NCBI GenBank assembly: GCA_036266555.1
Contig: DATAMW010000030.1
Coordinates: 1-61,520 of the forward strand
Length of the DNA: 61,520 nt
Reading direction: 5' to 3'
Origin: Patescibacteria group bacterium
GTDB lineage: Bacteria; Patescibacteriota; Doudnabacteria; UBA920
In this document: positions 17,921-40,923 of the stretch, in pieces
How positions within the stretch are numbered: the stretch's first letter is position 1
Layout of the letters: each line of letters begins with the position of its first letter
Program-made: the position numbers and the translations under genes
Notes under the pieces: model-generated
Seen by the model: the letters and a program-made list of their open reading frames with translations, nothing else
Told to the model about the DNA's origin: nothing
The model's database searches: none

Positions 17921-17943
17921 TTAAAGTTTTAATAAATCAAAAA

Positions 17944-18360: not shown

Positions 18361-18469
18361 TTCCCTGGATATAGTAGAATATAAGTACGTTACATTTAGA
18401 TAAGAACCTGTTCGGAATCAGCTCTATGTTAGCCAGCCGATCCTGAACAGCTTCATCCTCATTCGAAAG

Positions 18470-18904: not shown

Positions 18905-19039
18905 TTGTTTTCCCGCATTTAAGGTTAGCCTGATGTGCGGGATAGCTCTGGGAACAAAACTAAAACTACAAATGCACAAGTTCGTCGCAGTTTTATTTCC
19001 AGAGTTATTTATCAAAAATTGATTAAGACAATTAAAACA

Positions 19040-19447
19040 ATGAAACAAAAAATTATTTTAAGCTTAGCTGGGATGTTCGTTGCTATCATGGCCATGTTCG
19101 CTTTTGCTCCAAGCTTTGCAACTGTTAGCGCACAAGGCACAGGCTCTGGATGTACAACTAACTGTGTGGGCAGTGGTTTAAATGATATTGCACAAGCTTT
19201 CCCTGCAAGAACTACACACACAATTCCTGAATTGGCTAAACTAGTTATCAACTGGGCGTTGTACCTGGCTGCAATTATTGCCGTAATCTTCATCATCATT
19301 GGTGGCTTCATGTACATTACTTCTGCAGGTGACTCTGCTAAAGCAAGCAAAGGCCGCGCAACATTGGTTAATGCTTTAATTGGTTTAACCATGATCGTGC
19401 TGTCGTACTTAATTGTTCAAATCGTTTACAATTTCTTGACTACGTAG
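19040..19447 (+). CDS. TrbC/VirB2-like membrane protein, paralog P6
   Basis: Start set at ATG 19040 (MKQKIILSLAGMFVAIMAMFAFAPSFATVSA signal peptide). A Cys pair (GCTTNC) and the module INWALYLAAIIAVIFIIIGGFMYITSAGDSAKASKGRATLVNALIGLTMIVLSYLIVQIVYNFLTT. Confidence 0.6.
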   Translation: MKQKIILSLAGMFVAIMAMFAFAPSFATVSAQGTGSGCTTNCVGSGLNDIAQAFPARTTHTIPELAKLVINWALYLAAIIAVIFIIIGGFMYITSAGDSAKASKGRATLVNALIGLTMIVLSYLIVQIVYNFLTT

Positions 19448-19460
19448 TTCTATATAATTT

Positions 19461-20306
19461 GTGAGCATGATTTTTAGCAAAACATCTTTTATCTCCAAGT
19501 TTACTCTCGCCATGCTTGCTCTTGTGAGCATGGCGTTCTTTGTTGTGCCTGCAGACAACGCGCAGGCGCAGTCGGGTGGCAGAGGAACTCGAGTAGTATT
19601 CTGTTTTAACACAGTCACGAAAAACGTCACTTATCCTTCTTCTGTAGACAGCTGTCCACCAGATGCTAATATTATTTCTAAATCTTTTCCTAAAACTGAT
19701 AAAGGCTATTGTGTGACCGGCGCTAGTGCTCCTTATGATGCAGAGGAACCTCTACTAACTGCTGCAGGCGAACCTAAAGTAGCGAATGGCCAATGTCTTT
19801 CTGATGACAAACCTGGTGACCCGGCTCATTCTAGTGTGCCGTTCGGCCCATTTGTAGCATTCCCATCATCTGTTCTCCCTGCGCCAACTCCGACACCAAC
19901 CCCAACCCCAACGCCCACACCTACTCCTACTGTTCCTCCTGGTGGAAGTGGTGGTCCAGGCGGTGGCGGTCCAGGCAATTACACTCAAGGGGATTGTGAA
20001 GACAATTTCCACAAAGTTGGCCCATTGTGTGTGCCGAATAATCCTTTCAACAACAACTCCATTGCTGGGGGCGATGCCACAGCCAGCAGTATTGCTGTGA
20101 GAATCATCAAAATTTTGCTTTACTTTGGGGCAATTGTTGCAGTAATCATGGCCATGATTGGCGGTTACTACGTGATGACTGCAGCTGGCAATGCGGCTCA
20201 AGCAGCTAGTGGCCGTAAAACCCTAACTAACGCAGTAATTGGCTTGGCGATTGTAGTTTTGGCTTATGTCATAATTCAAGCAGTTATCAGTTTCCTAACC
20301 ACATAA
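19461..20306 (+). CDS. Large TrbC/VirB2-like paralog P7 with a Cys-rich ectodomain and a (PT)8 linker
   Basis: Signal peptide, a ~130-aa Cys-containing domain, a PTPTPTPTPTPTPTPT linker, a G-rich stretch, a second Cys pair, then the module LLYFGAIVAVIMAMIGGYYVMTAAGNAAQAASGRKTLTNAVIGLAIVVLAYVIIQAVISFLTT. Confidence 0.6.
   Translation: MSMIFSKTSFISKFTLAMLALVSMAFFVVPADNAQAQSGGRGTRVVFCFNTVTKNVTYPSSVDSCPPDANIISKSFPKTDKGYCVTGASAPYDAEEPLLTAAGEPKVANGQCLSDDKPGDPAHSSVPFGPFVAFPSSVLPAPTPTPTPTPTPTPTPTVPPGGSGGPGGGGPGNYTQGDCEDNFHKVGPLCVPNNPFNNNSIAGGDATASSIAVRIIKILLYFGAIVAVIMAMIGGYYVMTAAGNAAQAASGRKTLTNAVIGLAIVVLAYVIIQAVISFLTT
19884..19931 (+). repeat. In-frame (Pro-Thr)x8 dipeptide repeat within P7
   Basis: cca act ccg aca cca acc cca acc cca acg ccc aca cct act cct act, read directly. 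Confidence 0.9.
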
Positions 20307-27259: not shown

Positions 27260-27790
27260 ATGTTAACTATCCGCCTACAACGTGCAGGCAAAAAGAACAA
27301 ACCGGAGTACCGAATTGTTCTTGCAGATAAAACTGCAGCTGCGCAAAAGAAATTTACCGAAGTGCTTGGTTCTTACAACCCGCACACTAAAGCTCTAACT
27401 ATCCGCGATCAAGAACGCTTGAATTACTGGAAAGATGAACAGCATGTTGAACTATCTGCAACTGTTCGCAACCTGTTGATCACTAAAGAAATTATCAAAG
27501 GTGATAAAACTAAAGCTTTCACTATTCCTAAAAAGGAAGTAGTTGCTGAGGAAGCACCAGCAGCTCCAGCGGAAACTTCAACTGAAGCTCCTGCAACCGA
27601 AGAAGCTCCTAGCGAAACACCTGCTGAAGAAGTAGCAGAAGCTGTTGCTCCAGAAGCGCCAGCCGAAGTAGAGACACCTGCTGAACCAGAAGCTCCAGTA
27701 GCTGAAGCAGCTCCTGAAGTTGAGGCTCCAGCTGAAACTCCAACAGAAACACCAGCAGAAGCTCCTGCAACAGAAGAAACTCAAGTCTAA
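27260..27790 (+). CDS. rpsP: 30S ribosomal protein bS16 with a ~90-aa A/E/P/T-rich C-terminal extension
   Basis: MLTIRLQRAGKKNKPEYRIVLADK...GSYNP is the canonical S16 start. From about residue 95 the sequence is EEAPAAPAETSTEAPATEEAP... low complexity. Confidence 0.92.
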   Translation: MLTIRLQRAGKKNKPEYRIVLADKTAAAQKKFTEVLGSYNPHTKALTIRDQERLNYWKDEQHVELSATVRNLLITKEIIKGDKTKAFTIPKKEVVAEEAPAAPAETSTEAPATEEAPSETPAEEVAEAVAPEAPAEVETPAEPEAPVAEAAPEVEAPAETPTETPAEAPATEETQV

Positions 27791-27805: not shown

Positions 27806-27828
27806 CTCCGCCTTCGGGCGGTTTTTTA
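27806..27828 (+). terminator. Intrinsic terminator after rpsP
   Basis: CTCCGCC-ttcg-GGCGG followed by T6. Confidence 0.75.
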
Positions 27829-27857
27829 TTGACTTTTTGTCTACCTCATCGTATGAT
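27829..27857 (+). promoter_or_regulatory. Sigma70-type promoter (TTGACT-17-TATGAT) for the first small anchored protein gene
   Basis: -35 at 27829-27834, 17-nt spacer, -10 at 27852-27857. Confidence 0.5.
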
Positions 27858-27915
27858 ATTAGTAATAAAGCTCATACAGAGCAAACGACAAAGAAATAAA
27901 AATTAATCAAAAAGA

Positions 27916-28395
27916 ATGAACAATAATAAGATGATCACGCTAGGCGTGTTAGTCCTAGCCCTTATAGTAGCAGCGGTTTTGTATTTTAATATGCAAAATA
28001 ATAAAAAAGATGTTGCTATGAACACAAATGTTCCTGAAAAAACTAAGGAAATTGTGAAAACTGATGTAGAAACTAACAAATCTCCGGAAAAATTCCCAAC
28101 TGACATTCCAATCGAATCTGGCGCTACAATTACCCAAAACTACAATGCGACTGCTCCAGATGGCCGTTTCCAAGCCACTCGCGCATTCACTAGTAAGAAA
28201 ACATTGGGCGAAAACTACGCACTTTACAAAGAATGGATGAATTCTAATGGTTGGACCATTGCTTCATCAGTTGATCAGCCAACCTATAAAATGGTTTCTG
28301 GCACTAAAGGCAAGCAAACTCTCCAAGCCTCAATTAGCGAAAATAGCTCTACTAAAGAAGTTACAGTTACCTTATCTTTGACAATTCTCCCTTAA
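27916..28395 (+). CDS. Small N-terminally membrane-anchored protein, family member S1 (unknown function)
   Basis: One N-terminal TM helix, then a ~110-aa domain with the block PEKFPTDIPIESGATITQNYNATAPDGRFQATRAF shared with the ORFs at 33586 and 34067. Confidence 0.7.
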   Translation: MNNNKMITLGVLVLALIVAAVLYFNMQNNKKDVAMNTNVPEKTKEIVKTDVETNKSPEKFPTDIPIESGATITQNYNATAPDGRFQATRAFTSKKTLGENYALYKEWMNSNGWTIASSVDQPTYKMVSGTKGKQTLQASISENSSTKEVTVTLSLTILP

Positions 28396-28411
28396 TTTAG
28401 CCTCTTTTTTA

Positions 28412-28440
28412 AAACTCCCTTGTTTGGGAGTTTTATTTTA
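28412..28440 (+). terminator. Intrinsic terminator after S1
   Basis: AAAACTCCC-ttgttt-GGGAGTTTT followed by ATTTT. Confidence 0.65.
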
Positions 28441-28461
28441 GCTTAATGTGGGGCATTTTAC

Positions 28462-28490
28462 TTGATTTTTCCGTGCATTCGTGCTATAAT
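28462..28490 (+). promoter_or_regulatory. Sigma70-type promoter (TTGATT-17-TATAAT) for giant protein G1
   Basis: -35 at 28462-28467, 17-nt spacer, -10 at 28485-28490. Confidence 0.55.
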
Positions 28491-28531
28491 TAAGTTAATA
28501 AAAAGTCAGAGTTCGAAACAAAAACAAATAA

Positions 28532-31500
28532 ATGAGTAAGAAATTCTTAAATGCGCACGCAAGACAGTGGTTCTTGATGATTTTCGGTCTTTTTGCTATG
28601 GTTTTCCCTCTAAAATCTAATTTTAGGAAAATTACCCATATTGCCGTTCTAATAGCAATATTAGTTGGAACAATTAGTGCTGGAACATTAATCAATCCAA
28701 ATGTAGCCCACGCTAGTTGTGATCCGGCCACTCAGCAGCAAGATTATCAGGCTCCAACGGTTTCAATTTCTCAGCCAACTGGTTCTTACACAGATCCAGG
28801 AAGTATGAGCATTGCGATTTCCGGTCAATTGGCTTATTACTGTGAAGGCTTTGTTGGTGGTGGCGCTGGTTACCAAAATACAGCTACCTCGGTAAACTAC
28901 CAAATTACTAATGACTCAAACGGGAGCATGCTATTTTCTAATACATGGAACTCTCCCTCATGTCCAAACCCATTAGCTTGTTTGCCTGGGCCTTATAATA
29001 TTTCTGATACTGCTAATGCTTCTTTGTGGGGCACAGCAAGTTATACAATTACAGCTAGTGTGTATGATAATACCCAGCATTCAGCAGGTAACCCAAACCC
29101 TATTGCTACAAGCTTTAATCATTTTACAGTTACCCGCACCGCAGCAGTAGGTTATGAAATTCAAGGTAGTCTTGCGATCCAGTCTGTTACTCCTGATCCT
29201 TCGGATACATCGATAAATGTATCTGGAACAGGAACTGGTGGCTATTGGTCTCGAGGAGGCCCTCGTTGTTTCTTTGGATCTAATCGCTCTGAAGCGTTCA
29301 TTCGCATGCAACTGGTTACAACTACGCCTGCCAATGGACCTTATCCGCCAGGATCTGACAGTATTACAAATAATTCTTATCACAATCCACCGCCATCAAG
29401 TTACTCAACAATTTATAAGATAGATGGATCAACTGCTGGCACTTATCCATTAGTTCTGACTTATTCAGGCAGTGATGTTCCTGGAGATCCTAATTGTAAT
29501 ACTACTCCAGATCCGATGGGTTATTCTTTCAATTTTTCTATCAATACTACTGGATTAACTAATGGTCAGCACACAGTGACTGTTACTGCTTGGGATGAGT
29601 CCAAGAAAATGGTAGTTTCTTCTACTTACACATTCACAGTGTCTCATCCAGTTGTCCTTACTCCAGACTGGTCTGTATCTTGTACTCCAGCTTCTGTAAC
29701 CCTGACCCAAGGGAACTCTGGTAGCTATTCTTTATCTACATCACCGATTAATGGATTTAAATCTGCTGTAACTTTTAGCGGCCCATCTTACAGCCCGAAT
29801 CCAGGAGTTGCTCCAAGTGTATCTTTTTCAAACAACTCTCAAGCTCCTTCAGCAACGACTACAGCTATTATAAATACAACAGCATCTACATCACCAGGCA
29901 CATATACCTTAACATTCACTGGCACAGATGGCTTAAATACACACACCTGTTCTGTGCAGTTGATAGTGCAGGCGCTCCCGTCTCCGACAGTAGTGTTATC
30001 TTTTAGCTCTTCGAGCACTGTTACTACTCAAACGATTGCCTCTGGAGCAAGTACAACTATATATTGGACTCCAACCAATACTACTGCCGGTACAAACTGT
30101 ACAGCCAGTAATGCTTGGAGCGGAGCACAAGGCAGTAACTCTGGACAGCAATATAGTTATGCTACCCCATCAATGTCTTCTTTTGGCAGCCCGTATACAT
30201 TTAGCATACAGTGTACTGGGCCAGGTGGAACCACCTCTCTGACCAGTATTGTATTAACAGTTTCAGCTAGTCCAGATTTCTCACTTTCGTGTACTCCATC
30301 GTCTCTTACTCTTACTCAAGGGAACTCCGGTAGCTACTCCTTAACAACTACGCCGTTAAACGGTTACACTGCTAAGGTTACTTTTTCAGGGCCTTCGTAT
30401 AGCCCAACTCCAGGTGTGGCGCCGTCAATTAGTTTTTCAAACAACACCCAAATTCCTAGTGCTACTACTACAGCACTTGTTACTACTACTACATCCACTT
30501 CTCCAGGCACATACAACCTAACTTTCACAGGCACAGGTAGCGGAGCAACTCATAATTGTTCTGTGCAATTAATAGTTACTGCAGTGGCTACTCCAGCAGT
30601 AGAGCTTTCTTTTAGCCCTCATCCAAGTGTGATAACAACCCAAACAATTTCTGCTGGATCAAGCGCTACTTTGTATTGGTATCCAACCAACACTACTGCA
30701 GGTACAAACTGTACTGCCAGCAATGCTTGGGGTGGAGCTTTGGGTAGTAATCCAGGCCAGCAATACAGTCAATCAACTGGCGCCATGCCAGCGGGTACTT
30801 ATACTTATACGATTCAATGTACTGGGCCAGGGGGAAGCACCTCTCCAGCTAGCGTTACATTAACGGTTTCTTCTGCCCCTGTTCCAGACTGGTCTATATC
30901 TTGTACTCCAGCTTCTATCACAATCACTCAAGGCAACTCCGGTAGTTACTCTCTTTCTACATCACCAATTAATGGATTTGCTTCTGCTGTAACCTTTAGC
31001 GGTCCTTCGTACAGCCCATCTCCTGGCGTTGCGCCAAGCATATCTTTTTCAAACAACGGCCAAGTGCCAAGTGCCACTACTACAGCAATTGTTACTACAA
31101 CTGGCTCTACTTCTGCAGGTACATATACTTTAACTTTCACAGGTACAGGTGGCTCAATTACGCACACTTGTTCTGTGCAGTTGATAGTGCAAGCTGTATC
31201 AGTCACTGCTTCTGTAGACATTAAGTGTAACGGTACTGATGGACCATGTCCTGTGGCATCCGGAGGCAGCGCCACTTTGTCATGGACTTCTAGTAATTGT
31301 ACTGGTATTTCTATTGACCAAGGCATTGGCGGCGTGGCTGCCACTGGAACCACTCCAACCGGCAGTACATTCTCGACTAAAACTTTTATTATTACTTGTA
31401 CAGCTGTCTCTGGTGATGTTACTGACTCAGTGACCATAACAGTAAATCCTGCAGACTGGTCTTTGTCTTGTACTCCAGCCTCTATCACTGTTCCTCAAGG

Positions 31501-33529
31501 TAATTCAGGCAGTTATTCTTTATCTACATCACCAATCAATGGATTCTCTTCTGGAGTGACATTCAGCGGTCCTTCGTACAGCCCAACTCCAGGGAATGCC
31601 CCAGGCATTAGTTTCTTTAGCAATGGCCAAGTGCCAAGCGCGACTACTACTGCCTTCGTTACTACTTCTGCGCTCACCACTGCAGGAACATATACCTTAA
31701 CTTTCACAGGTACAGGCGGCGGCATTACCCATACTTGTTCTGTCCAATTGATAGTGCAGACAGTAGCGGTGACTTCAGGCATTGATTTAAAATGTAATGG
31801 CACAGATGGACCGTGTACGGTTATTTCTGGTGGCAGTGCAACTTTGTCTTGGGTGCCAACTAATTGTTCTGGTACTCTTGATATGGAACCAGGCGGTATG
31901 ACTCTTGCAAACTCCCCAGGCTCAATGTCTACGGGCCCACTATTTAGTAGTCGCAATTATTTCCTTTCCTGTTTTGATGGCTCAGGCGGATCTTATTCTG
32001 ATTCTGTTACAGTCAACGTTGGTGTTGATTGGTCTTTGTCATGTAGCCCGAGTGCGGGTACTGTATCGCCTGGTGGTTCAACCAGCTTCTCTTTGTCGAC
32101 TAGCCCAGTAGGTGCATTCGGTGGCGCCATTACTTTCAGTGGGCCAACTTACAGCCCAACTCCAGGGGTGGCCCCATCTGTAAGTTTCACAAATAATAAT
32201 CAACTGACACCAGCTACGACGACAGCCATAATTTCAACAACTGGCTCTACTTCCACAGGTGTATATAATATAACGTTCACTGGAGTCATGACTGGCAGTG
32301 GCGGCATGTTCCCACACAGCTGTACTGTGCAGTTGACGATTGGTTCGGCTCCGCCACCTTCAGACTGGACGTTATCATGTACCCCACCTTCGGCAAGTAT
32401 TATGGCAGGAAATTCTACAAGTTTTTCATTATCTACTACTCCAGTTAGCGGCTTTAACAAGGCTGTCACTTTTAGTGCTCCAACCTATTTCCCAACTCCT
32501 AGCACGCCACCATCAGTTTCTTTTTCAGGCAATAGTCAGGTGCCGTCTGCTGTAACAACTGCGATTATTACCACTACATCGAGTACGTCCACTGGAACCT
32601 ATACGCTTCAGTTTAATGGCGTTGGCAATGGGATTACGCATATTTGTAGTGTCTCGTTGACTATTAGTGGTGGGCAACCGGCTACTCCAATAAACGTGAC
32701 TACTTCCAATTTCCCTTGTGGCACAGTGACTGTGAGTTGGGCGCCAGGGACACCGTCGACTCCAGCCCCAAGTGGGTACAGAGTTTTCCGAGGCACTAGC
32801 TCGAATCCATCTTTTGGAACTTGGACACTAATTTCTAAGCCAACGAAAACAGATCCTGATCCGTTGCCTCCAACCCAAACCAGCTGGCAAGATACCAGCC
32901 CTGGTTACAGCAGTAATTATTACAAGGTTTTGGCTTACAATGGGCTCACTGCGTCTAATGACCCAGGTACTGCCACTTTGGGTAATGCTGCGGCTTGTGC
33001 AGGAGCTTTGACTAGCTCAGATATAGACCTTACTCAGGTGTCTGGAAAAATTAATAAAACCTTTAGTGCAATTTCTTGTAATGGTACTTCTGATGTGGCT
33101 ACGTTGCCTAACAACGCCTTATTCACAGTAGGCGATAGAGTAACATTCAAACTTAATGTTTGTAATTCTGGCTCAGCTGGTTTAACAAGTGTGTCAGTAT
33201 CTAATCCTCTCACCAATATCACCAGTCCAACCGTGGCCACGGCCTCACCTTCTGGTTGTGTAACCGGGCAATCATATAATGTGCTCTCAAATACCTTTAC
33301 CTTTAATTTAGCTGACCTACCATCTGGTGGCGGCTCTACGCAGGTTTGTAGTATTACTTATACAGCAACAGTGACGGCGCCAGCTTCTGCGCCTGGCAGT
33401 GTTTATCGATTCTTGAGCGCAGCCACTATTTATAGTACAGAACTTGGAAGCTATCCAATTACTACGCCACCGTATTTGTTTGGAAATACTTCCACTGTTC
33501 CAGATCGTACTGAAACAGCGCCGCAATAA
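28532..33529 (+). CDS. Giant secreted surface protein G1 (1665 aa): conserved head, six A-type and four B-type Cys-paired Ig-like modules, FN3, DUF11-like tail
   Basis: Signal peptide ending VAHA|SC. ~330-aa head shared with G2. Repeated ~100-aa modules beginning DWS(V/I/L)SCTP...GNSGSYSLSTSPINGF...THTCSVQLIVQA alternate with ~95-aa modules. C-terminal FN3-like (GYRVFRG...YYKVLAYN) and DUF11-like domain. Ends VPDRTETAPQ. The true start may be the internal ATG at 28598. Confidence 0.8.
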   Translation: MSKKFLNAHARQWFLMIFGLFAMVFPLKSNFRKITHIAVLIAILVGTISAGTLINPNVAHASCDPATQQQDYQAPTVSISQPTGSYTDPGSMSIAISGQLAYYCEGFVGGGAGYQNTATSVNYQITNDSNGSMLFSNTWNSPSCPNPLACLPGPYNISDTANASLWGTASYTITASVYDNTQHSAGNPNPIATSFNHFTVTRTAAVGYEIQGSLAIQSVTPDPSDTSINVSGTGTGGYWSRGGPRCFFGSNRSEAFIRMQLVTTTPANGPYPPGSDSITNNSYHNPPPSSYSTIYKIDGSTAGTYPLVLTYSGSDVPGDPNCNTTPDPMGYSFNFSINTTGLTNGQHTVTVTAWDESKKMVVSSTYTFTVSHPVVLTPDWSVSCTPASVTLTQGNSGSYSLSTSPINGFKSAVTFSGPSYSPNPGVAPSVSFSNNSQAPSATTTAIINTTASTSPGTYTLTFTGTDGLNTHTCSVQLIVQALPSPTVVLSFSSSSTVTTQTIASGASTTIYWTPTNTTAGTNCTASNAWSGAQGSNSGQQYSYATPSMSSFGSPYTFSIQCTGPGGTTSLTSIVLTVSASPDFSLSCTPSSLTLTQGNSGSYSLTTTPLNGYTAKVTFSGPSYSPTPGVAPSISFSNNTQIPSATTTALVTTTTSTSPGTYNLTFTGTGSGATHNCSVQLIVTAVATPAVELSFSPHPSVITTQTISAGSSATLYWYPTNTTAGTNCTASNAWGGALGSNPGQQYSQSTGAMPAGTYTYTIQCTGPGGSTSPASVTLTVSSAPVPDWSISCTPASITITQGNSGSYSLSTSPINGFASAVTFSGPSYSPSPGVAPSISFSNNGQVPSATTTAIVTTTGSTSAGTYTLTFTGTGGSITHTCSVQLIVQAVSVTASVDIKCNGTDGPCPVASGGSATLSWTSSNCTGISIDQGIGGVAATGTTPTGSTFSTKTFIITCTAVSGDVTDSVTITVNPADWSLSCTPASITVPQGNSGSYSLSTSPINGFSSGVTFSGPSYSPTPGNAPGISFFSNGQVPSATTTAFVTTSALTTAGTYTLTFTGTGGGITHTCSVQLIVQTVAVTSGIDLKCNGTDGPCTVISGGSATLSWVPTNCSGTLDMEPGGMTLANSPGSMSTGPLFSSRNYFLSCFDGSGGSYSDSVTVNVGVDWSLSCSPSAGTVSPGGSTSFSLSTSPVGAFGGAITFSGPTYSPTPGVAPSVSFTNNNQLTPATTTAIISTTGSTSTGVYNITFTGVMTGSGGMFPHSCTVQLTIGSAPPPSDWTLSCTPPSASIMAGNSTSFSLSTTPVSGFNKAVTFSAPTYFPTPSTPPSVSFSGNSQVPSAVTTAIITTTSSTSTGTYTLQFNGVGNGITHICSVSLTISGGQPATPINVTTSNFPCGTVTVSWAPGTPSTPAPSGYRVFRGTSSNPSFGTWTLISKPTKTDPDPLPPTQTSWQDTSPGYSSNYYKVLAYNGLTASNDPGTATLGNAAACAGALTSSDIDLTQVSGKINKTFSAISCNGTSDVATLPNNALFTVGDRVTFKLNVCNSGSAGLTSVSVSNPLTNITSPTVATASPSGCVTGQSYNVLSNTFTFNLADLPSGGGSTQVCSITYTATVTAPASAPGSVYRFLSAATIYSTELGSYPITTPPYLFGNTSTVPDRTETAPQ
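29663..32680 (+). repeat. In-frame tandem module repeats inside G1
   Basis: A-module starts read at 29663, 30272, 30884, 31451, 32024 and 32360, giving spacings of 609, 612, 567, 573 and 336 nt. The copies are clearly related but diverged at the nucleotide level. Confidence 0.85.
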
Positions 33530-33531
33530 TG

Positions 33532-33554
33532 TGATATGCTTAATATAAGCATAT
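33532..33554 (+). terminator. Hairpin after G1 (weak terminator)
   Basis: GATATGCTT-aatat-AAGCATATC (9-bp AT-rich stem) followed by TTTAAAT. Confidence 0.4.
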
Positions 33555-33585
33555 CTTTAAATAGAGTAGAAATTAAAATAAACAT

Positions 33586-34062
33586 ATGGAGCAAGTTAAA
33601 ATAAAACAATTGTTAACAGTCATTGGGGCATTTATTGTTGCTGGTTTAGTAGTGGCTGTGGGAACAGTGATCTATAAAAAATATGTAGCACCAACACCAG
33701 TGGCTATTAAATTGCCAGTGCAGCAAAAAGATTTGCCAGTGAATCAAGTGCCAGAAAAATTCCCTACAGACGTGCCAATAGAGACTGGCGCAACCATTAC
33801 TCAAAATTACAATGCCACAGCTGATGATGGTCGTTTTCAGGCCACTCGTGCTTTTGAAACCAACAAATCTTTGGCAGAGAACCTGACCCTTTACACAAAC
33901 TATTTGAAAGCTGGCGGTTGGACTCTTAACCCTGTAATTGATCAAGATATGTTTAAATTAATATCAGGCAGTAAGGGTAATCAGCAAATCCAATTTGCTA
34001 TGACTGAAAACAATGTGTCGCATAAAAAAACTGTGACTATTTCCTTAACTGAAATTAAATAA
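33586..34062 (+). CDS. Small N-terminally membrane-anchored protein, family member S2
   Basis: A TM helix, then VPEKFPTDVPIETGATITQNYNATADDGRFQATRAF. A close paralog of S1. Confidence 0.7.
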   Translation: MEQVKIKQLLTVIGAFIVAGLVVAVGTVIYKKYVAPTPVAIKLPVQQKDLPVNQVPEKFPTDVPIETGATITQNYNATADDGRFQATRAFETNKSLAENLTLYTNYLKAGGWTLNPVIDQDMFKLISGSKGNQQIQFAMTENNVSHKKTVTISLTEIK

Positions 34063-34066
34063 TATT

Positions 34067-34555
34067 ATGATGAACAAGAAATTACTTATTGCTGTTGGGG
34101 TTTTGGTAATCGCAGCTGCGGCTCTAGCAGCAATTTACTTTTTTCATATTAAAAAAAATCAACCAAAACCTTTTGCAGTTGAAACAAAAACTTTAGACGC
34201 TGCTGTTTTGCCAAGTGGTTTTCCAAAAAACATGCCAATCGAAGCTGGCTCAACAGTGTTGCAAAACTACGAGGCCACTACCACAGATGGCAGAAAACAG
34301 TCTACCCGAGTTGCTACTACGAACAAAACTTTAACCGCAGCACTGAAAGACTATTCAGATTATTTTGTGCACTTAGGATGGACATTAATTCCTAATACAG
34401 ATGCTGCAACCAATACTACTAGCGCCCTATTAAGATATCAAGATAGAATATTAGTCATTAGCGGCAGTACAAATGATGCTACAAAACAAAACAGTGTTTC
34501 TTTAACTTTGACTGAATCATTTGTACAAGCCCCAGCTAGTAATATTAAGAAGTAG
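34067..34555 (+). CDS. Small N-terminally membrane-anchored protein, family member S3 (more divergent)
   Basis: A TM helix, then GFPKNMPIEAGSTVLQNYEATTTDGRKQSTRVA...HLGWTL. Same layout as S1 and S2. Confidence 0.65.
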   Translation: MMNKKLLIAVGVLVIAAAALAAIYFFHIKKNQPKPFAVETKTLDAAVLPSGFPKNMPIEAGSTVLQNYEATTTDGRKQSTRVATTNKTLTAALKDYSDYFVHLGWTLIPNTDAATNTTSALLRYQDRILVISGSTNDATKQNSVSLTLTESFVQAPASNIKK

Positions 34556-34564
34556 TAAAAGCAT

Positions 34565-37500
34565 ATGCTAAAACAAAACTTTAAATTCATAACCACTAGA
34601 CTAGTCAGCTTGTTAATGACAGTCGCTATCTCTGCAGGAGCAATTACTGCTGGGACTTTTGTTGCGCCAAATATTGCGCATGCTAGCTGTAATCCAGCAA
34701 CTCAAGAGCAAGATTATCAATCTCCAACTGTATCTGTGTCTCAGCCAACTGGCACCTATACAGATCCTGGTACTATTAACATTGCGATTTCTGGCCAACT
34801 CACTTACTACTGTGAAGGGGATGTTCCTCCTGGCGGCGGCGGATTTGGTTATCAGAATACAGCCACTGCAGTAAATTACCGCATTACCCGTGACTCTGAT
34901 GGCACCGCGCTGTTTAATCAAACATGGCATTCCCCAAGTTGTGATGACCCTTTGGCTTGTCTTCCTGGACCATATAATATTTCCGATGGAGCCAATGCTT
35001 CGGCATGGGAATCAGGTGCTTACACCATCAGAGCTGATGTATATGATAATACCCTTCATTCCACTGGAGCGATCGTTAATACCAGCACTAATCACTTTAC
35101 AGTGCAACAAACTCCAGGCGCTCCCGGGTATGAAATTCGAGGTAGCCTAGGTATTAATAGTGTTAATCCAAATCCAGCAGACACATCTGTGACTGTAACT
35201 GGAACCGGTGTTGGCGGCTATTGGTCTCGCGGTGGACCACGTTGTTATCAAGGGTCTAACCGTTCCGAAGCGTTCATTCGCATGCAGTTAGTGACCACTA
35301 CTCCAGCTAATGGGCCATACCCTCCTGGATCCAGTGCCATTATTAACGCTGCTTACCACAATACTCCAGTTCCAAATTATCCGACTACTTATAAAGTAGA
35401 TGGAGTGAATGCTGGCGTTTATCCGTTAGCACTTAACGAGGCTGGCAGTGATGTTCCTGGAGACCCAGCTTGTGACACAGTGCCAGACCCAATGACCTAC
35501 ACATTTAGTTTCCCAATTAATACTGCGGGACTAAGCGGTGGCAATCATACAGTGACTGTGTATGCTTGGGATGAATCCACACAAACAGAAATTTCTTCTA
35601 CAACTACTTTTGCAGTGCAGCACAATGCATTAATTTGTGATGCAACTCATACTGTTCAAAGCGGTACCCCTGCTCAATATTCTGTGGGTATGACTGGTAA
35701 TCCATCTGGCACTATCAGTGTGACTATGTCGAGCAACCCAAGCGGCCCACAAATGACTAATAGCCCATTGAGTTTAAATGCTGGCAATAGTTTTACTGGA
35801 GTTGCTAATGTTTCTACTGCTGGCTTAGCAGCAGGAACCTATAATTTAACTTTCACAGGCATGCCTGGGTCTTTCACCTGTGCTGCCACTTTAATTGTTA
35901 CTGCAGTGCCATCGGCGCCACAAGTAGATATTAAATTTAATGGCAGTGATGCTCCTCCGCCACTAAGCTCTGGCACAACCAGTGGCACCATTAGTTGGGG
36001 GAACCAAAATGTAGTTGGTTGTACTGCTTCTTCTAGTTCTAATCCAGCTGGGCGCGACGCAGTGCTTAGCCCAGTGTGGAATGGTTCATATAACGTCAGC
36101 CCAGCAGGAAATGGTTCGCAATCTGTATCTGGATTACAAGATAACACCACTTACACTTTTGTATTAAACTGTACAGGTGTGGCAGGTAGCAATCCATCTT
36201 CGGACTCTGATAACGTAGTGGTCAGTATTGGATCGTCTGCTCCAGTGCTTAACCCTTCTGCTGACATTAAATGTAATGGCAGTGATGGACCATGTACTAT
36301 CCCAAGCGGGACTAGTGCAATTTTAACTTGGACATCCACCAATACAGCAGGCAATTGTACTATTACCAATATTCCTGGTGCGCAACCGTTAAATAATCCA
36401 AGCCCTGGAATTACTACAGGCAACTTAACTAACCCACCAGGCAGTTACGATTATACTATCACTTGTCCTGGAGTAATGGCTGGTAGCTCGCCACCTAACG
36501 GCACTGACAATGTGCACATCAACGTGACTGCGGCACCACCAGTTCAACCATTTGCAGATATAAAATGTTCTGACAGTCCAAGCTCGGGCCCTAGCGATGG
36601 TCCATGTTATGTAACGCGCGGATCTGTTGGCTATCTAACTTGGGCATCATCAAATACTACTAGCTGTACTTTGTCGGAAAATGGGCAGAATCCAGGTTTT
36701 GCATCTTTGAATCGCCCAGCACCGTATCACACTGATTCAATTGATGTTGATACTACATTTACTTTAGCTTGTACTGGTCCTGGAGGTTCGACTTCGGATT
36801 CAGTTACCTTCATTGCAGTGGATGGCAATCCGCCGCCAAGCGTTGATTTAAAATGTATTGGCGACAACGGGCAAACTTCGGATGGTCCATGTGCGGTGCA
36901 AAGTGGCAATGTTGGTCATTTAACTTGGACTTCTAGTCATGCAGATAACTGTACTATGAGTAGAGATGGCGGCGGCCAATCATCTGTGGCAACCAATCAA
37001 GGTGCTCCGGGTATGGCTACGCCAACGTTAACTGCTAATACCAGTTATACAATTACCTGTTCTGGACCAACAAGTCCAGTAGCAACCGATTCAGTAACAT
37101 TTACTATCACTCAAACACCTCCTCCTCCTCCTGGCGGCGGCGATGATTTTACTTTGGCTTGTACTCCAGCAGCAGTGACTATCCATCCTGGTGACTCAAC
37201 TGCATTCCAGATTAACACTACCAAAGTTGGTAACTTTAACGACTATGTAGTTATCTCTGTACAAACATTTATTCCTACGCCTAGTCATCAAGCGCAAATT
37301 AGTTTTAGCGGCAACAATCAAATGCCTTCTGCTACTACGACTGCGTTAGTTACTACTGATGGCACCACTTCTCTTGGTTCCTACACTGTTGTGTTCCAAG
37401 GTGATGGCGGCGGGATTAATAAAACTTGTAACGTAGTTTTGAATATTGTTGATAGTTCTCCTCCGCCCCCACCACCACCTCCACCACCTCCTGCAGCGCC

Positions 37501-38305
37501 GCGCGCGCCGTCAGTGTCTGCTGATGTATCGCAGTGTGGTAAGGTAACTGTGAATTGGAGTCCAAATCCTCCTCCAACACCATCAAGTTATAATGTGTAT
37601 CGTGGTAATAACTCGAATCCATTCTCTGGTTCTTGGCAATTAATTGCGAGCGTACCAGAACCAGGCCGTTCCTTTACTGATAACGCCCCGGCCACTAGTA
37701 ACAACTATTATAGAGTTGAAGCTGTCACCTCTGGAGGCTCAGCGTCTTCTGGAGCTGTCTTAGGCAACATGTCTCCATGTGTACCGAACATTAATGCTTC
37801 GGACAAAGATTTAACTAGTGTTTCTGGTTTAATTACTAAAAACTTTGCGTTACATCCTTGTAACGGTACTTCTGATGTAGCTAGTTTGCCAGTGAATACC
37901 GTGTTTGCCATGAATGATAAAGTGACTTTCCGCATCAATGTTTGTAACGATGGCCCTGGTGCTTTAACCGGAGTTACTGTTGCGGACACATTAAAGAATC
38001 TTACTAATCCAACTTTTAGTAACCTGTCTCCTTGTGTCACTGGTCATAGTTATAATCCGGGACAAAACACTATCAAATTTGCTTTGAATAATGTTGCTCC
38101 TGGTAATGTAGTGCGCCAAGTGTGTACTATTGAATTTACTGCGACAGTTACAGCACCAGCAGTAACAACCGCTGCGCTGTATCGATTCCAAAACATTGCT
38201 GATATTTCTTCTAAAGAATTACCAGTGAAGCGCGTGATGACTCCGCCATATTTGTTTAGCGTTACAGGCGGTGTTCCAGATAGAACTGAAACCGCGCCAC
38301 AGTAA
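34565..38305 (+). CDS. Giant secreted surface protein G2 (1246 aa), paralog of G1
   Basis: Signal peptide ending IAHA|SC. The head is collinear with G1 (for example ASCNPATQEQDYQSPTVSVSQPTGTYTDPG, RSEAFIRMQLVTTTPANGPYPPGS). Four B-type modules (DIKCNGSDGPC...), one or two A-type modules, a P11 tract, FN3-like and DUF11-like tail. Ends VPDRTETAPQ. Confidence 0.8.
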   Translation: MLKQNFKFITTRLVSLLMTVAISAGAITAGTFVAPNIAHASCNPATQEQDYQSPTVSVSQPTGTYTDPGTINIAISGQLTYYCEGDVPPGGGGFGYQNTATAVNYRITRDSDGTALFNQTWHSPSCDDPLACLPGPYNISDGANASAWESGAYTIRADVYDNTLHSTGAIVNTSTNHFTVQQTPGAPGYEIRGSLGINSVNPNPADTSVTVTGTGVGGYWSRGGPRCYQGSNRSEAFIRMQLVTTTPANGPYPPGSSAIINAAYHNTPVPNYPTTYKVDGVNAGVYPLALNEAGSDVPGDPACDTVPDPMTYTFSFPINTAGLSGGNHTVTVYAWDESTQTEISSTTTFAVQHNALICDATHTVQSGTPAQYSVGMTGNPSGTISVTMSSNPSGPQMTNSPLSLNAGNSFTGVANVSTAGLAAGTYNLTFTGMPGSFTCAATLIVTAVPSAPQVDIKFNGSDAPPPLSSGTTSGTISWGNQNVVGCTASSSSNPAGRDAVLSPVWNGSYNVSPAGNGSQSVSGLQDNTTYTFVLNCTGVAGSNPSSDSDNVVVSIGSSAPVLNPSADIKCNGSDGPCTIPSGTSAILTWTSTNTAGNCTITNIPGAQPLNNPSPGITTGNLTNPPGSYDYTITCPGVMAGSSPPNGTDNVHINVTAAPPVQPFADIKCSDSPSSGPSDGPCYVTRGSVGYLTWASSNTTSCTLSENGQNPGFASLNRPAPYHTDSIDVDTTFTLACTGPGGSTSDSVTFIAVDGNPPPSVDLKCIGDNGQTSDGPCAVQSGNVGHLTWTSSHADNCTMSRDGGGQSSVATNQGAPGMATPTLTANTSYTITCSGPTSPVATDSVTFTITQTPPPPPGGGDDFTLACTPAAVTIHPGDSTAFQINTTKVGNFNDYVVISVQTFIPTPSHQAQISFSGNNQMPSATTTALVTTDGTTSLGSYTVVFQGDGGGINKTCNVVLNIVDSSPPPPPPPPPPPAAPRAPSVSADVSQCGKVTVNWSPNPPPTPSSYNVYRGNNSNPFSGSWQLIASVPEPGRSFTDNAPATSNNYYRVEAVTSGGSASSGAVLGNMSPCVPNINASDKDLTSVSGLITKNFALHPCNGTSDVASLPVNTVFAMNDKVTFRINVCNDGPGALTGVTVADTLKNLTNPTFSNLSPCVTGHSYNPGQNTIKFALNNVAPGNVVRQVCTIEFTATVTAPAVTTAALYRFQNIADISSKELPVKRVMTPPYLFSVTGGVPDRTETAPQ
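37460..37492 (+). repeat. In-frame poly-proline (P11) tract in G2
   Basis: cct ccg ccc cca cca cca cct cca cca cct cct, read directly. Confidence 0.9.
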
Positions 38306-38309
38306 TGCT

Positions 38310-38338
38310 TTGACACGATCAATTGAAAATGGTATATT
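38310..38338 (+). promoter_or_regulatory. Sigma70-type promoter (TTGACA-17-TATATT) for the KH-protein/trmD/rplS genes
   Basis: -35 at 38310-38315, 17-nt spacer, -10 at 38333-38338. The palindrome ATTGCAaaTGCAAT overlaps the -10 and start site. Confidence 0.55.
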
Positions 38339-38410
38339 GCAAATGCAATAGAGGCTACAAGAAAAGGTCGAAGCCAAGCTCTCCTATAGCAGAAATCTAA
38401 CAGAACGAAC

Positions 38411-38791
38411 ATGGAGAATGATCAAGAATTTGTTGAATACATCATCAAGGCGTTAGTTGATAACCCGGCAGATGTTCGCACAGATCGTACCGTTGATGAA
38501 ATGGGTGTTCTAATTACCTTACACATCAATCCTGCAGACATGGGCCAAGTAATTGGTCGTATGGGCCAAACTGCTAAAGCCGTTCGCACCCTTCTACGCG
38601 TTGTTGGTGCTAAGCATAAAGCTCGTGTTAACTTGAAGATTGATGAACCAGAAGGTTCTCATCGTGGACCGCGCCGTGATTACGGTGACCGTCCTCGTAC
38701 TGATGCCCCTGCATCTGACTCAATGTCCAGCGATGACTCTCAAGCGCAAGCCGAAAGCGCCGCTCCAGACATGGATGACTTCAAACTTTAG
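38411..38791 (+). CDS. KH-domain RNA-binding protein (YlqC/UPF0109-like) with a basic/acidic C-terminal extension
   Basis: VEYIIKALVDNPADVRTDRTVDEMGVLITLHINPADMGQVIGRMGQTAKAVRTLL matches the UPF0109 KH fold motif (GxxIGRxG). It holds the usual position between rpsP and trmD. Confidence 0.8.
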   Translation: MENDQEFVEYIIKALVDNPADVRTDRTVDEMGVLITLHINPADMGQVIGRMGQTAKAVRTLLRVVGAKHKARVNLKIDEPEGSHRGPRRDYGDRPRTDAPASDSMSSDDSQAQAESAAPDMDDFKL

Positions 38792-38814
38792 TTTAAAGAT
38801 AAAAAACAAAAGAT

Positions 38815-38834
38815 CGCTGTTACAGCGGTTTTTT
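38815..38834 (+). terminator. Intrinsic terminator or attenuator
   Basis: CGCTG-tta-CAGCG followed by GTTTTTTG. Confidence 0.5.
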
Positions 38835-38842
38835 GTTATCAT
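38834..38842 (+). promoter_or_regulatory. Extended -10 (TGtTATCAT) 6 nt upstream of the trmD ATG (leaderless-type)
   Basis: TGTTATCAT at 38834-38842, ATG at 38849. Confidence 0.4.
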
Positions 38843-38848
38843 TTATAT

Positions 38849-39571
38849 ATGAAGAAAACAGCGAAACGAAAAATCTCAGTCTCAATAATTACTTTGTTCC
38901 CTGAGTTCATAGACCAGTACGCTGGTTTTGGAATTATTGCTCGGGCAATTAAGAATAAACTTTTGAATATTAAAGCAGTAAATCTGCGTGGTTTTTCGTT
39001 TGATAAACGTGGGACTGTTGATGATCGCCCGTACGGCGGTGGCTTGGGCATGGTGCTGCGACCGGATGTTGTGATTAAGGCGATTACAAAGTTGCGCGGG
39101 CGTGTGAGTGCGGCAAATGCAAAAAAAACGCGCGTGGTATTAATGACTCCGCAAGGGAAGCCATTCACGCAGGCAATTGCGCGCAAGTTATCTAGCTACG
39201 ACCATTTGGTGTTTGTGTCTGGTCGCTATGAAGGCTTTGATGAACGCGTGCGCAAATTCGTAGACGAAGAAATTTCCATTGGCGATTACGTATTAATGGG
39301 CGGCGAGTTGCCAGCATTGGTAATTACCGAGGCAGTGCTACGTTTAGTGCCGGGTGTTTTAGGGAAAGATGACTCTGCAGACAAAGAAAGTTTTACTGAG
39401 AGCATGCTTGAGTTTCCGCAGTACACCAAACCAGAAGTTTTAGAGGTGGCTGGTAAAAAATTGCGCGTGCCAAAAGTGTTATTGAGTGGACATCATTTAA
39501 ATATTGAACAGTGGCGCGCGGAAGAGGCAACGAAACGCACCAAGAAGCGTCGACCGGATTTGTTAAAATAA
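38849..39571 (+). CDS. trmD: tRNA (guanine37-N1)-methyltransferase
   Basis: ISVSIITLFPEF, DDRPYGGGLGMVLRPD, VFVSGRYEGFDERV and IGDYVLMGGELPALV are canonical TrmD blocks. Confidence 0.95.
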   Translation: MKKTAKRKISVSIITLFPEFIDQYAGFGIIARAIKNKLLNIKAVNLRGFSFDKRGTVDDRPYGGGLGMVLRPDVVIKAITKLRGRVSAANAKKTRVVLMTPQGKPFTQAIARKLSSYDHLVFVSGRYEGFDERVRKFVDEEISIGDYVLMGGELPALVITEAVLRLVPGVLGKDDSADKESFTESMLEFPQYTKPEVLEVAGKKLRVPKVLLSGHHLNIEQWRAEEATKRTKKRRPDLLK

Positions 39572-39572
39572 T

Positions 39573-40514
39573 ATGGCATCAAAAAAATTCACAGTTGAAG
39601 AATTAAAAACGCGCTTAGATAAATTTTTAGCTGAGCAGTTTTCGGATTTGTCTGGACAAATTATTTCGCGTGGTAAGATTCAGCGCGACATTGAACTTGG
39701 TGCAGCAAAGGTGAACGGCAAAGTGCAAGAGTCGCCAAAATTTGTCGTGCGCAAAGACGACAAAACCGAGTACGCGCCAATTAAAGAAGAAGCGCCTGGT
39801 CCAAAAAATATTCCTTTGGTGACTTTGTACAACAATCACGGTTTGTTAATTCTCGACAAACCCGCAGGCTTAGTAGTGCACCCAGGCGCAGGGTTTAAGG
39901 GAGACTCGTTAGCGCAGGCGCTATTGTATCATTTTAAGGATATTCACTTAGTGGGCGAAGAAGGTCGAAGCGGCATTGTGCATCGGTTGGACAAGGATAC
40001 CAGCGGCGTAATTATGGTGGCTTTGACCCAGGAAATGTACGAACACTTAAAAGATGCGTTTGCAGAGCGAAAGATCAAAAAGGAATATATTGCCTTAGTT
40101 AAGGGGAAAATTGAGCAGCAGCACGGCCAAATTGACGCGCCGTTAGGCAAATCCCAGAAAGATTTCCGCAAATATACCACAAATACAGCGGACATGGTGC
40201 GGGAAAAACCATCGCTGACCGAGTACTGGGTAGAGGGCTATTTTACCGATGGAGTTGACTTTTTCACCCTAATTAAGGTAAAATTGCATACAGGTAGAAC
40301 GCATCAGATTCGCGTTCATTTTTCTTCACTCGGATTTCCATTAATAGGCGATGAGCTCTATGGCGGCAAGAAAGTGATGAAATTCGGCCTCAACAGACAA
40401 TTCCTTCATGCGAAAAAGATTGAAGTGCAATTGCCTGACTCGCAATGGATTGAGGCAGAAACAGACATGCCGAAAGATCTGAAAGACGTTTTGAATAACT
40501 TAAAAAAATTATAA
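39573..40514 (+). CDS. RluA-family pseudouridine synthase (RluD-like)
   Basis: S4-like N-terminus, catalytic motif [15 protein letters not shown]-terminal GRTHQIRVH. Confidence 0.9.
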
Positions 40515-40515
40515 G

Positions 40516-40923
40516 ATGCCAACTGTAAAACATTTAAAATCCGAACAGCTTAAAGAATGGCCAGCTTTTGAAGTTGGTAATACTATTAAGGTACACAACC
40601 GAATTAAAGAAGGCGGCAAAGAACGTATTCAGATTTTTGAAGGCGTAGTGATTGCTCGCAAAGGCGGTAAAGGTGTTAACGCAACATTCATGGTTCGCAA
40701 AATCGCTAGTGGTGTTGGGGTGGAACGTATTTATCCTTTACACTCTCCAAACATTGCGAAGATTGAAGTATCAAAAGATGATAAAGTTCGCCAAGCGAAA
40801 ATTTATTACATCCGTGAACGCCGCGACAATGCACCTCGTACTCGTCGCAAATTAGTTGTTACTAAAAAGATGAAAGAAGCTGCTGCTAAAAAAGAAGCTT
40901 CCAAAGCAGCGAAGGCTGAATAA
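40516..40923 (+). CDS. rplS: 50S ribosomal protein bL19
   Basis: [35 protein letters not shown]...[17 protein letters not shown] is canonical L19. Lys/Ala-rich tail. Confidence 0.95.

Follow-up and report, generated by a model that had tools for sequence, protein, structure and literature searches.

A probably old surface-protein locus between rpsP and khpA in a clade of Saccharibacteria genomes

How did more than ten kilobases of surface-protein genes come to lie between rpsP and khpA, two members of a conserved ribosomal gene cluster, and what could such genes be doing there? The question is raised by contig DATAMW010000030.1 of the Patescibacteria group assembly GCA_036266555.1, of which we analyzed a stretch of 61,520 nucleotides (nt). 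This whole stretch is referred to as the window; coordinates are those of the window unless another sequence is named, and all genes, domains and transcription signals of the locus and its borders lie on the forward (+) strand. The gene calls come from a map of the open reading frames (ORFs) together with Pfam family scans. The source is described as a soil Saccharibacteria genome and is a metagenome-assembled genome (MAG) of the candidate phyla radiation (CPR; Saccharibacteria/Patescibacteria), which agrees with the CPR-like organism supposed in an earlier note on this DNA. That note had proposed an accessory surface island that inserted and then duplicated inside a core ribosomal operon. Our answer, to which as a whole we give a probability of roughly 0.7, is that the genes form an old, clade-defining and fast-changing locus for surface or exported proteins, situated between two transcription units.

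The gap between rpsP (27260-27790; ribosomal protein S16, PF00886, E=1.8e-12), which forms the upstream border and whose orthologues lie 5' of the island in relatives, and the khpA-type KH-domain gene (38411-38791; PF13083, E=2.8e-21) measures 10.62 kb and contains five co-oriented ORFs and nothing else. These are S1 (27916-28395), which encodes a small type-II membrane-anchored protein of S-family subtype A (apparently of PF27226 'AF_1845' type); G1 (28532-33529), which encodes a 1665-aa Sec-exported and presumably fibrillar surface protein; S2 (33586-34062, subtype A); S3 (34067-34555, subtype B); and G2 (34565-38305), which encodes a second protein of this kind with 1246 aa. The ORF map and the family scans thus agree with the earlier description of rpsP and khpA as split by five accessory genes in the order S1-G1-S2-S3-G2. 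Beyond khpA follow trmD (38849-39571; PF01746, E=8.5e-58), a rluD-like pseudouridine synthase gene (39573-40514; PF00849 and an S4 domain) and rplS (40516-40923; ribosomal protein L19, PF01245, E=1.1e-40), so that none of rpsP, khpA, trmD and rplS is missing and the four keep their customary order on one strand.

To place this arrangement in a comparative setting, TrmD was used as the query of a scan with one genome per species, and the resulting 80 loci were mapped by tblastn and ORF-level blastp. The baseline is given by the loci of other phyla, where rpsP lies 0.3-1.8 kb 5' of trmD (within 2.5 kb) in 42 of 47; the cluster is therefore normally contiguous, as had been assumed, and the window, with about 11.06 kb from the end of rpsP to trmD, departs from that state. 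The close relatives are 16 species labelled Saccharibacteria (L002-L017) with a TrmD identity of 67-89%. S-family and/or G-family genes are found directly 5' of khpA in all 16, and in the 13 whose contigs reach rpsP the distance between rpsP and khpA is 4.2-7.9 kb. Four relatives with a TrmD identity of 62-64% (L018, L019, L020 and L063) and a fifth with 51% (L021) are free of the island and have rpsP and khpA 81-295 bp apart with nothing between them. A neighbour-joining tree of KhpA, TrmD, RluD and RplS gathers the island-bearing genomes into one clade in 200 of 200 bootstraps, with the island-free genomes branching below it. Because the island-bearing species form one clade, a single old insertion at the base of that clade would account for their common layout, and we consider it very probable, on this comparison of sequences, that the locus is a derived insertion, old, gained once and typical of the whole Saccharibacteria clade. 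What remains of the earlier idea of an insertion into a normally contiguous cluster is that the insertion is derived; it is not recent, since it is clade-wide (16 of 16 species), recurs at rpsP in five of six further S-homologue contexts and has a near-backbone composition. The earlier note had named the routine presence of the same five genes in related genomes as counting against it, and half of this was found: S and G genes at the site are lineage-typical, and the same five genes are not kept.

The locus is bordered by transcription signals on both sides. An intrinsic terminator follows rpsP (27808-27827; hairpin 27808-27821, CCGCC-TTCG-GGCGG and then a T-run), and a GC-rich hairpin with a T-run stands after rpsP in each of the 14 island-bearing loci checked. 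The downstream border is the promoter of khpA (38310-38338), a TTGACA-17-TATATT element with counterparts of the form TTGAC[AC]-17-TAnnnT about 70 nt 5' of khpA in 13 of 13 island-bearing relatives checked. Promoter-like matches as a class are not enriched in the region, where a consensus scan found 21 and 27.5 were expected by chance, and a single site counts for something only if relatives have it too. The khpA promoter passes as credible on this ground, since all of the relatives examined share its position and its sequence. That rpsP has a terminator of its own and khpA a promoter of its own had been claimed before, and the conservation of both signals bears this out. The promoter is followed by a conserved 5' leader of the khpA-trmD-rluD-rplS unit (38339-38410) with the core GGTCGAA and the flanks ..ATAG.. 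and ..CTAT..CAGAAA. The leader with its invariant GGTCGAA is present in L002-L017, L082 and L086 and also in the island-free L018, L019, L020 and L063, among which L019 and L063 have much longer inserts enclosed by the flanking elements. The same four island-free relatives have a TTGACA promoter a few bases past the rpsP stop codon (for L019, L020 and L063 this was read from the printed sequences), and in L018 the rpsP terminator is present as well. Since promoter and leader of khpA already exist in island-free relatives, the island lies in the spacer between two separate transcription units and, judging from these alignments, the insertion site is a boundary between transcription units that was there before the island arrived. 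To place the insertion inside a core ribosomal operon was to this extent an overstatement.

The leader may be a new cis-regulatory element for the khpA-trmD-rplS unit. Its interpretation as a structured RNA was tried and set aside: no family of Rfam 15, the ribosomal-protein leaders such as L19_leader included, matches 38339-38410 at E ≤1, the folding energy is ordinary (z = 0.31) and a single compensatory change was seen, so that structure is neither backed nor excluded. Within the locus itself, S1 is preceded by a promoter-like site (27829-27857, TTGACT-17-TATGAT) and followed by a terminator-like hairpin with a T-run (28410-28443; hairpin 28410-28435), and a further promoter-like site (28462-28490, TTGATT-17-TATAAT with an upstream TG) precedes G1. 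In several relatives, too, a promoter-like sequence can be read after the rpsP terminator. The consensus scan found no terminator-like site after G1 or G2, and the spacers of only 4 and 9 bp between S2, S3 and G2 make these three genes look like one operon. The assertion that each gene set has separate promoters and terminators therefore stands for S1 and fails for the rest.

The gene content of the locus differs from species to species. The most common layout among the relatives is rpsP, S_A, M, S_B, G, khpA, where S_A and S_B denote S genes of subtypes A and B and M is an exported protein of 465-560 aa. All nine of the M proteins have an HExxH motif, mostly in the form HExxHxxGxxH, and weak Pfam matches to M11/M12B, which makes M probably a secreted metzincin protease; examples, which come from relatives only, are L002 3236-4633, L005 4646-6172, L009 3891-5570, L010 3874-5319 and L091 8882-10408. 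The gap after S_A in the relatives is usually about 100-155 bp, and a subtype-B S gene is usually no more than 21 bp away from G. Of the 11 subtype-B genes in the S tree, 10 have a spacing to G of -8 to +17 bp; at the remaining one, in L006, M comes next. The window, with the layout S_A / G1 / S_A-S_B-G2, is without M and has a second G in the M position, that is, it has lost the protease or replaced it with a second G. Other variants among the relatives are short G-like proteins without the C-terminal module (H), two or three copies of G, unrelated genes such as one of the LOG family and, in L092, a subtilisin (PF00082) after two S genes.

Comparison of protein identities shows how much faster the locus changes than its surroundings. 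Between the window and L002 or L005 the proteins of the flanking genes smc, khpA, trmD, rluD and rplS are about 77-95% identical, those of rpsP 68-76% and the island proteins 35-52%. The pair L002 and L013 is more closely related, with identities of 93-100% for Smc, S_B, G, S_A, KhpA, TrmD and RplS (Smc 98.5%, G 94%, KhpA 100%), and yet their M proteins, which are of equal length (465 aa; L002 3236-4633 and L013 3531-4928), are 27% identical. With neighbours that are nearly identical, an M pair this different points to one cassette having been swapped for a different allele. Taken together these alignments indicate that the position of the locus is fixed and that its content has been duplicated, lost and swapped since the insertion. 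The tree of the S proteins has two deep subtypes that are common to several species, subtype A including S1 and S2 and subtype B including S3, and because these subtypes predate the radiation of the clade, the sequence of events "inserted, then duplicated" is too simple. The paralogous sets on which it was based (S1-S3 and G1/G2) are there, but in the relatives the layout with the protease is the commonest one.

The two G proteins are built of a head, a stalk and a conserved C-terminal end. Both begin with an N-terminal hydrophobic signal followed by A-H-A|S-C and a Cys-rich head of about 315 aa with six Cys, including the post-signal one (counted from the translation). The G1 head (28715-29656) consists of two subdomains and is variable between species, as is the N-terminal region that forms the G2 head (34685-35629). 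The G1 stalk of immunoglobulin (Ig)-like repeats (29666-32665) was resolved by a jackhmmer repeat map into six repeats of type 1, two of type 2 and some other modules. In the G2 stalk (35639-37447), where a poly-proline linker follows the repeats, two type-1 repeats are clear and four more matches are type-2-like and weak. In the DNA the G1 stalk includes four tandem units of about 600 nt (direct-repeat family D1) with 72-80% nucleotide identity; Tandem Repeats Finder, run on the island, missed the repeats of G1 and G2, whose length and divergence exceed what it can detect. From species to species the G proteins span about 690 to 1665 aa and keep the same C-terminal module. The identity between G1 and G2 is about 70% in the head and about 49% in the C-terminal stretch of about 270 aa, which, together with the 35-45% pairwise identity among S1, S2 and S3, confirms the earlier view of G1 and G2 as paralogous giants and of S1-S3 as paralogues.

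The heads are the least widespread part. A tblastn search found no match to the G heads in any of the 16 relatives, and when 1.84 billion representative proteins were searched exhaustively with HMMER, the G2 head had 23 relatives at E ≤1e-3, some of them G-type proteins with the same kind of tail and others of about 470 aa that end in ..ELKKKPIFIEN. As a side observation, among the matches of this search a set of proteins of about 450-520 aa (P0043, P0044, P0047, P0048, P0051, P0053 and P0056) has the first G head subdomain at 35-52% identity, and one more of this size (P0060) has the second subdomain instead; all eight share a signal ending in ..[LF]ASC[DN]P and a conserved C-terminal tail ..KKKPxFIEN, which points to another group of surface proteins in related organisms that is marked by a tail of its own.

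The C-terminal end of G carries most of what can be recognized. CLIPPER is a CnaA-like domain of fibrillar adhesins in which a Lys-Asn isopeptide bond is formed with Asp catalysis (PMC12617251). G2 has a fibronectin type III (FN3) domain (37469-37753), a CLIPPER (DUF11) domain (37787-38260; PF01345, with a TIGR01451 hit) with the putative isopeptide triad K1081/D1141/N1210, and the tail VPDRTETAPQ (38273-38302). The corresponding module of G1 (32693-33484) has FN3 and a CLIPPER-like domain (32999-33484) in which the triad is lost, followed by the same tail VPDRTETAPQ (33497-33526). A profile of 22 G C-terminal modules matched titin FN3 (E=1.8e-10) and an Fn3-like protein (E=4e-6) when compared with the PDB, where it had no sequence-level match to a solved CLIPPER domain, and the PF01345 scores of G2 (28.0 bits) and of the G proteins of L002 (30.3) and L016 (32.4) are above the cut-off of 24.6. 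In the alignment of these 22 proteins the triad columns read K-D/E-N in 19, and in the other three all three residues are replaced: I/N/S in G1, I/I/S in the second G of L004 (5991-8918) and I/L/A in the second G of L015 (3487-5970). Ile takes the place of Lys in all three triad-less proteins, and each of their genomes has at least two G copies, so that they may be a distinct bond-less subtype of G. The all-or-none pattern speaks for a functional triad, and on this basis G2 should form the bond and G1 should lack it; the CLIPPER domain of G2 is probably locked by a Lys-Asn isopeptide bond. The core of the tail, P..R.E, is invariant at the extreme C-terminus of all 22 proteins and mostly takes the form P-[DN]-R-x-E. 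How widely the module is spread could not be read from a word-indexed search (two hits with the single sequence and nine with the 22-sequence profile), which was swamped by Thr/Ser/Pro low-complexity words and is uninformative on this point. NCBIfam gave sub-threshold matches only for G, among them 'invert_tail' NF058595 on the stalk repeats (27.6 bits with a cut-off of 37), and a search of the literature for 'lipo-invert' found nothing.

The S proteins are small and much more conserved than the proteins of the neighbouring genes. We found 31 S homologues; a PF27226 ('AF_1845') hit had been precomputed for 23 of them and is lacking for P0001, the entry of S2 from the window. Their architecture is an N-terminal transmembrane (TM) helix, a variable linker and a highly conserved domain of about 100 aa with the nearly invariant stretch PEKFPxDIPIExGAxITQNYNATxxDGRFQATRxF. 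An AlphaFold2 model of S2 (predicted local distance difference test, pLDDT, 91.7) shows the TM helix at residues 2-33, then a small alpha/beta domain. A profile of S compared with PDB sequences gave chance matches to thioredoxin reductase only (E about 0.5). Across the clade the S genes precede genes for exported partners, be it M, H, G or the subtilisin.

These observations can be joined into the following account. In the ancestor rpsP very probably stood next to khpA, and one insertion at the base of the Saccharibacteria clade separated them; the locus has since held its position as its genes turned over, and the stalk of G has grown by tandem duplication. G would project from the cell, with the conserved FN3-CLIPPER-tail end probably proximal to the cell and the variable head as the outer binding end, and S would probably act at the outer membrane face as partner (anchor, docking site or folding helper) of the exported protein encoded next to it. 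The fast turnover would probably reflect selection on structures that an episymbiont exposes to its host or to phages. For G itself we put the chances of a role as adhesin or in host contact, close to what the earlier note had considered plausible, at about even. A more specific version is doubtful in our opinion, namely that the S proteins are dedicated membrane docking partners which capture the FN3-CLIPPER module and the P-D-R-x-E tail independently of sortase, and that the cassette-swapping locus sets the host range.

Several results weigh against the account, most of them on its functional side. No adhesive domain was recognized in the heads by Pfam or NCBIfam, and the G proteins have no LPXTG motif, OmpA-like domain, C-terminal TM helix, S-layer-homology domain or other anchor family, so that the retention of G on the surface and its orientation are inferences. 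The ..A-S-C.. site fits signal peptidase I or, weakly, a lipobox, in which case G may be lipid-anchored at its N-terminus; if the post-signal Cys were lipidated, the orientation of G could be reversed, although the even number of Cys in the head hints weakly at disulfides over lipidation. G1 reached 16.8 bits with CLIPPER_2 (DUF7507) only, where the cut-off is 27, and has lost the triad. An AlphaFold2 model of the G2 C-terminal module, made from a 4-sequence alignment, had a pLDDT of 56 and was too poor for a fold search or for the geometry of the triad. Foldseek found nothing significant in the PDB for the S model (best E=0.038, LpqN; also MTC28, DcrB, PsbP and Mog1), and a functional assignment of S on this basis was dropped. 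The terminator and promoter between S1 and G1 mean that the coupling of S and G is not universal. On the side of origin, the codon usage of the island is about 2 standard deviations (SD) off the backbone mean, and one S-H-G module stands beside nusA (L089, described below), so that the rpsP site is not absolute.

The explanation that survives best beside ours accepts that the locus is real and old, and takes G for an envelope structure (S-layer or sheath-like) or a secreted factor and the S proteins for unrelated membrane proteins or for protease or folding helpers. The missing adhesive domain and anchor suit this explanation, as does the presence of a metzincin as a usual member of the locus in the relatives and of a subtilisin in one, which suggests a general "secretome" locus; S genes, moreover, precede proteases and not G alone. 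We nevertheless think it unlikely, since fibrillar adhesins are typically built in this way, with a head that varies, a repeat stalk that differs in length and an end that is conserved (PMC12617251). A head that diverges so strongly while the base is kept is more easily understood as a binding tip than as part of a lattice. An S-layer usually consists of one very abundant protein of less modular build.

Less probable again is that the gene order of the window is ancestral in the wider lineage, with nothing inserted and the genes lost from the island-free relatives. S genes do occur beyond the set that was defined by TrmD: there are six further contexts of S homologues, five of them at rpsP (L082, L084, L086, L090/L091 and L092, the last with its S genes after rpsP), and the sixth is L089 (GCA_964618925.1, 10001-12422), where an inverted nusA block is adjoined by three genes: S_A, a short G-like gene (H) and one whose head resembles that of G1 (38% identity over 200 aa). 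The 10 kb fetched upstream of them contain no rpsP. Either the module is able to sit elsewhere or an inversion breakpoint lies at the island in L089, and the S genes of L092 and L089 mean that the module either arose before the sampled clade or is mobile. An ancestral order, however, would need several clean losses, because the four island-free relatives are successive basal branches; the contiguous cluster is the general bacterial state (the 42 of 47 loci given above), and L021, which is a more distant member of the Patescibacteria, also has rpsP beside khpA. We therefore hold to a single gain.

A recent, genome-specific island that was acquired horizontally, landed in a ribosomal operon and duplicated there is very improbable. 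In its favour, the genes are accessory and fall into paralogous sets, and homologues of the G2 head are rare in any organism; against it, each of the 16 related species, which form one clade, has the locus, and both S subtypes are common to several species. The composition of the island also leans a little towards this explanation: the relative synonymous codon usage (RSCU) of island and backbone correlates with r = 0.905, about 2 SD below the null obtained from backbone subsets (0.947 +/- 0.019, minimum 0.841), and GC at third codon positions (GC3) is slightly under that of the backbone (0.31 vs 0.37 +/- 0.06; overall GC 44.1% vs 43.0%). This is a mild deviation without a foreign signature, and the GC and codon profiles suggested as a check in the earlier note thus place the island near the backbone with a mild offset and do not bear out a recent foreign origin. 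GC skew flips sign and is negative across the island, which is accounted for by the Thr/Ser/Pro-rich composition of the G proteins (29% Ser+Thr, 9% Pro). The duplications themselves are old, since synonymous sites are saturated: codon identity at identical amino acids is about 49% between G1 and G2, in head and tail alike, and for the S genes about 45-50%. The 70% identity of the G1 and G2 heads had brought a recent gene conversion to mind; this was rejected, as the codon identity of the head (about 49%) equals that of the C-terminal part and no exact nucleotide match between paralogues exceeds 20 nt. No integrase or transposase is found among the five ORFs, no direct repeats flank the island, there is no further S or G copy elsewhere in the window and the border has no tRNA, the nearest one being 3.7 kb upstream. 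A mobile island would be marked by a recombinase, border repeats or a tRNA, foreign composition and patchy distribution, and the locus has none of these.

An assembly artefact, in which a misjoin through repeats put unrelated surface-protein genes beside rpsP, has a negligible chance of being correct, for although an independent JGI assembly of the same population (3300037475, contig Ga0400313_0000153, L001) begins at its position 1 inside the G1 repeat region, its contig has the C-terminus of G1, S2, S3, G2, khpA and trmD in the same order, rpsP, S/G genes and khpA stand together on single contigs in more than 20 other assemblies from other samples, and repeats of 72-80% nucleotide identity are divergent enough to assemble. 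The break does mean that the copy number of the G1 stalk repeats in the window rests on one assembly.

The cluster around the locus has features of its own. The earlier statement that rimM is absent is correct: the 57-bp gap between khpA and trmD has no ORF, and no RimM family match was obtained for the window ORFs from rpsP to rplS, which were the part of the genome searched. In the gene-called relatives, likewise, no RimM match stands beside khpA, and the tblastn maps place trmD 0.07-0.5 kb past khpA. The same gap contains a 15-pair AT-rich terminator-like hairpin with a T-run (38805-38837), which may serve within the operon for attenuation or for processing of the transcript, and in L084 a NUDIX gene (18239-18682) lies between khpA and trmD. 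The rluD-like gene between trmD and rplS is a second departure from the textbook cluster and is shared by all clade members whose contigs extend that far and by the island-free L018, L019, L020 and L063. The rpsP product has a C-terminal extension of about 85 aa rich in Pro, Ala, Glu and Thr (27540-27790), encoded in part by a 12-nt tandem repeat (27726-27769), and the alignment shows a similar extension in the rpsP of L092; KhpA has a low-complexity C-terminal extension of about 45 aa (38650-38791). Farther upstream five genes in a row (16697-20306) each encode a T4SS_pilin (PF18895) domain, 5' of tRNA-Leu, ftsH, a gene for a 301-aa membrane protein, tRNA-Val, rnc and smc, and the same pilin array is present upstream of ftsH in the relatives L086, L090 and L092.

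Set beside known systems, the cluster resembles the trmD operon of E. coli and Bacillus subtilis in the order and common strand of rpsP, khpA, trmD and rplS, and differs from it by the 10.6 kb of accessory genes, the missing rimM, the inserted rluD-like gene and the promoter and leader that belong to khpA. The G proteins share with the CLIPPER fibrillar adhesins (PMC12617251) a signal peptide, an N-terminal non-repeat head, an Ig-like stalk and a CnaA-like CLIPPER domain, with the Lys/Asp/Asn triad in G2 and in 18 of 20 aligned G proteins of relatives; they differ in having a single C-terminal CLIPPER rather than a tandem stalk, in the P-D-R-x-E tail, in the lost triad of G1, in the lack of LPXTG, OmpA-like or other known anchors and in their genetic pairing with a small membrane-anchored protein. 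We regard them as new members of this kind of adhesin, with an unusual terminal architecture and no known anchor. Periscope proteins are surface proteins whose stalk length varies with the number of repeats (PMC9704523), and the four tandem units of G1 and the varying length of G between species are reminiscent of them; the repeats of G1 are not near-identical, and their 72-80% identity makes rapid length switching by slippage unlikely. Most S homologues resemble the PF27226 'AF_1845' small proteins, a family with no known function, and an alpha/beta domain behind a membrane anchor recalls the Mog1/PsbP-like envelope proteins LpqN, MTC28 and DcrB, to which the fold matches are non-significant (E ≥0.038). 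Type IV pili of Saccharibacteria are reported to be host-binding structures (PMC11623550); like them, the G proteins would be surface filaments of episymbionts with a role in host contact, which for G is proposed only. The proteins and their assembly are unrelated in the two cases, and nothing in the island resembles a pilin or pilus machinery. Our literature searches found no published description of a surface locus between rpsP and khpA. That variable surface proteins are encoded at conserved sites is familiar from elsewhere, and what is new here is a fixed cassette-swapping locus between rpsP and the khpA leader.

Cultivated Saccharibacteria live attached to host bacteria, and to our knowledge little has been learned of what mediates this contact beyond type IV pili. 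The locus supplies defined candidates among surface proteins, and their variable heads could explain host specificity. Its fixed address, between rpsP and the promoter and leader of khpA, means that it can be found in fragmentary MAGs and can serve as a marker of the diversity of surface types within the clade. The all-or-none pattern of Lys, Asp and Asn provides a clean natural test set for the prediction of isopeptide bonds. More generally, a ribosomal cluster that is considered "universal" has here been stably interrupted over a long time, at a boundary that was already independent, which calls for caution when operons are inferred from synteny in CPR genomes.

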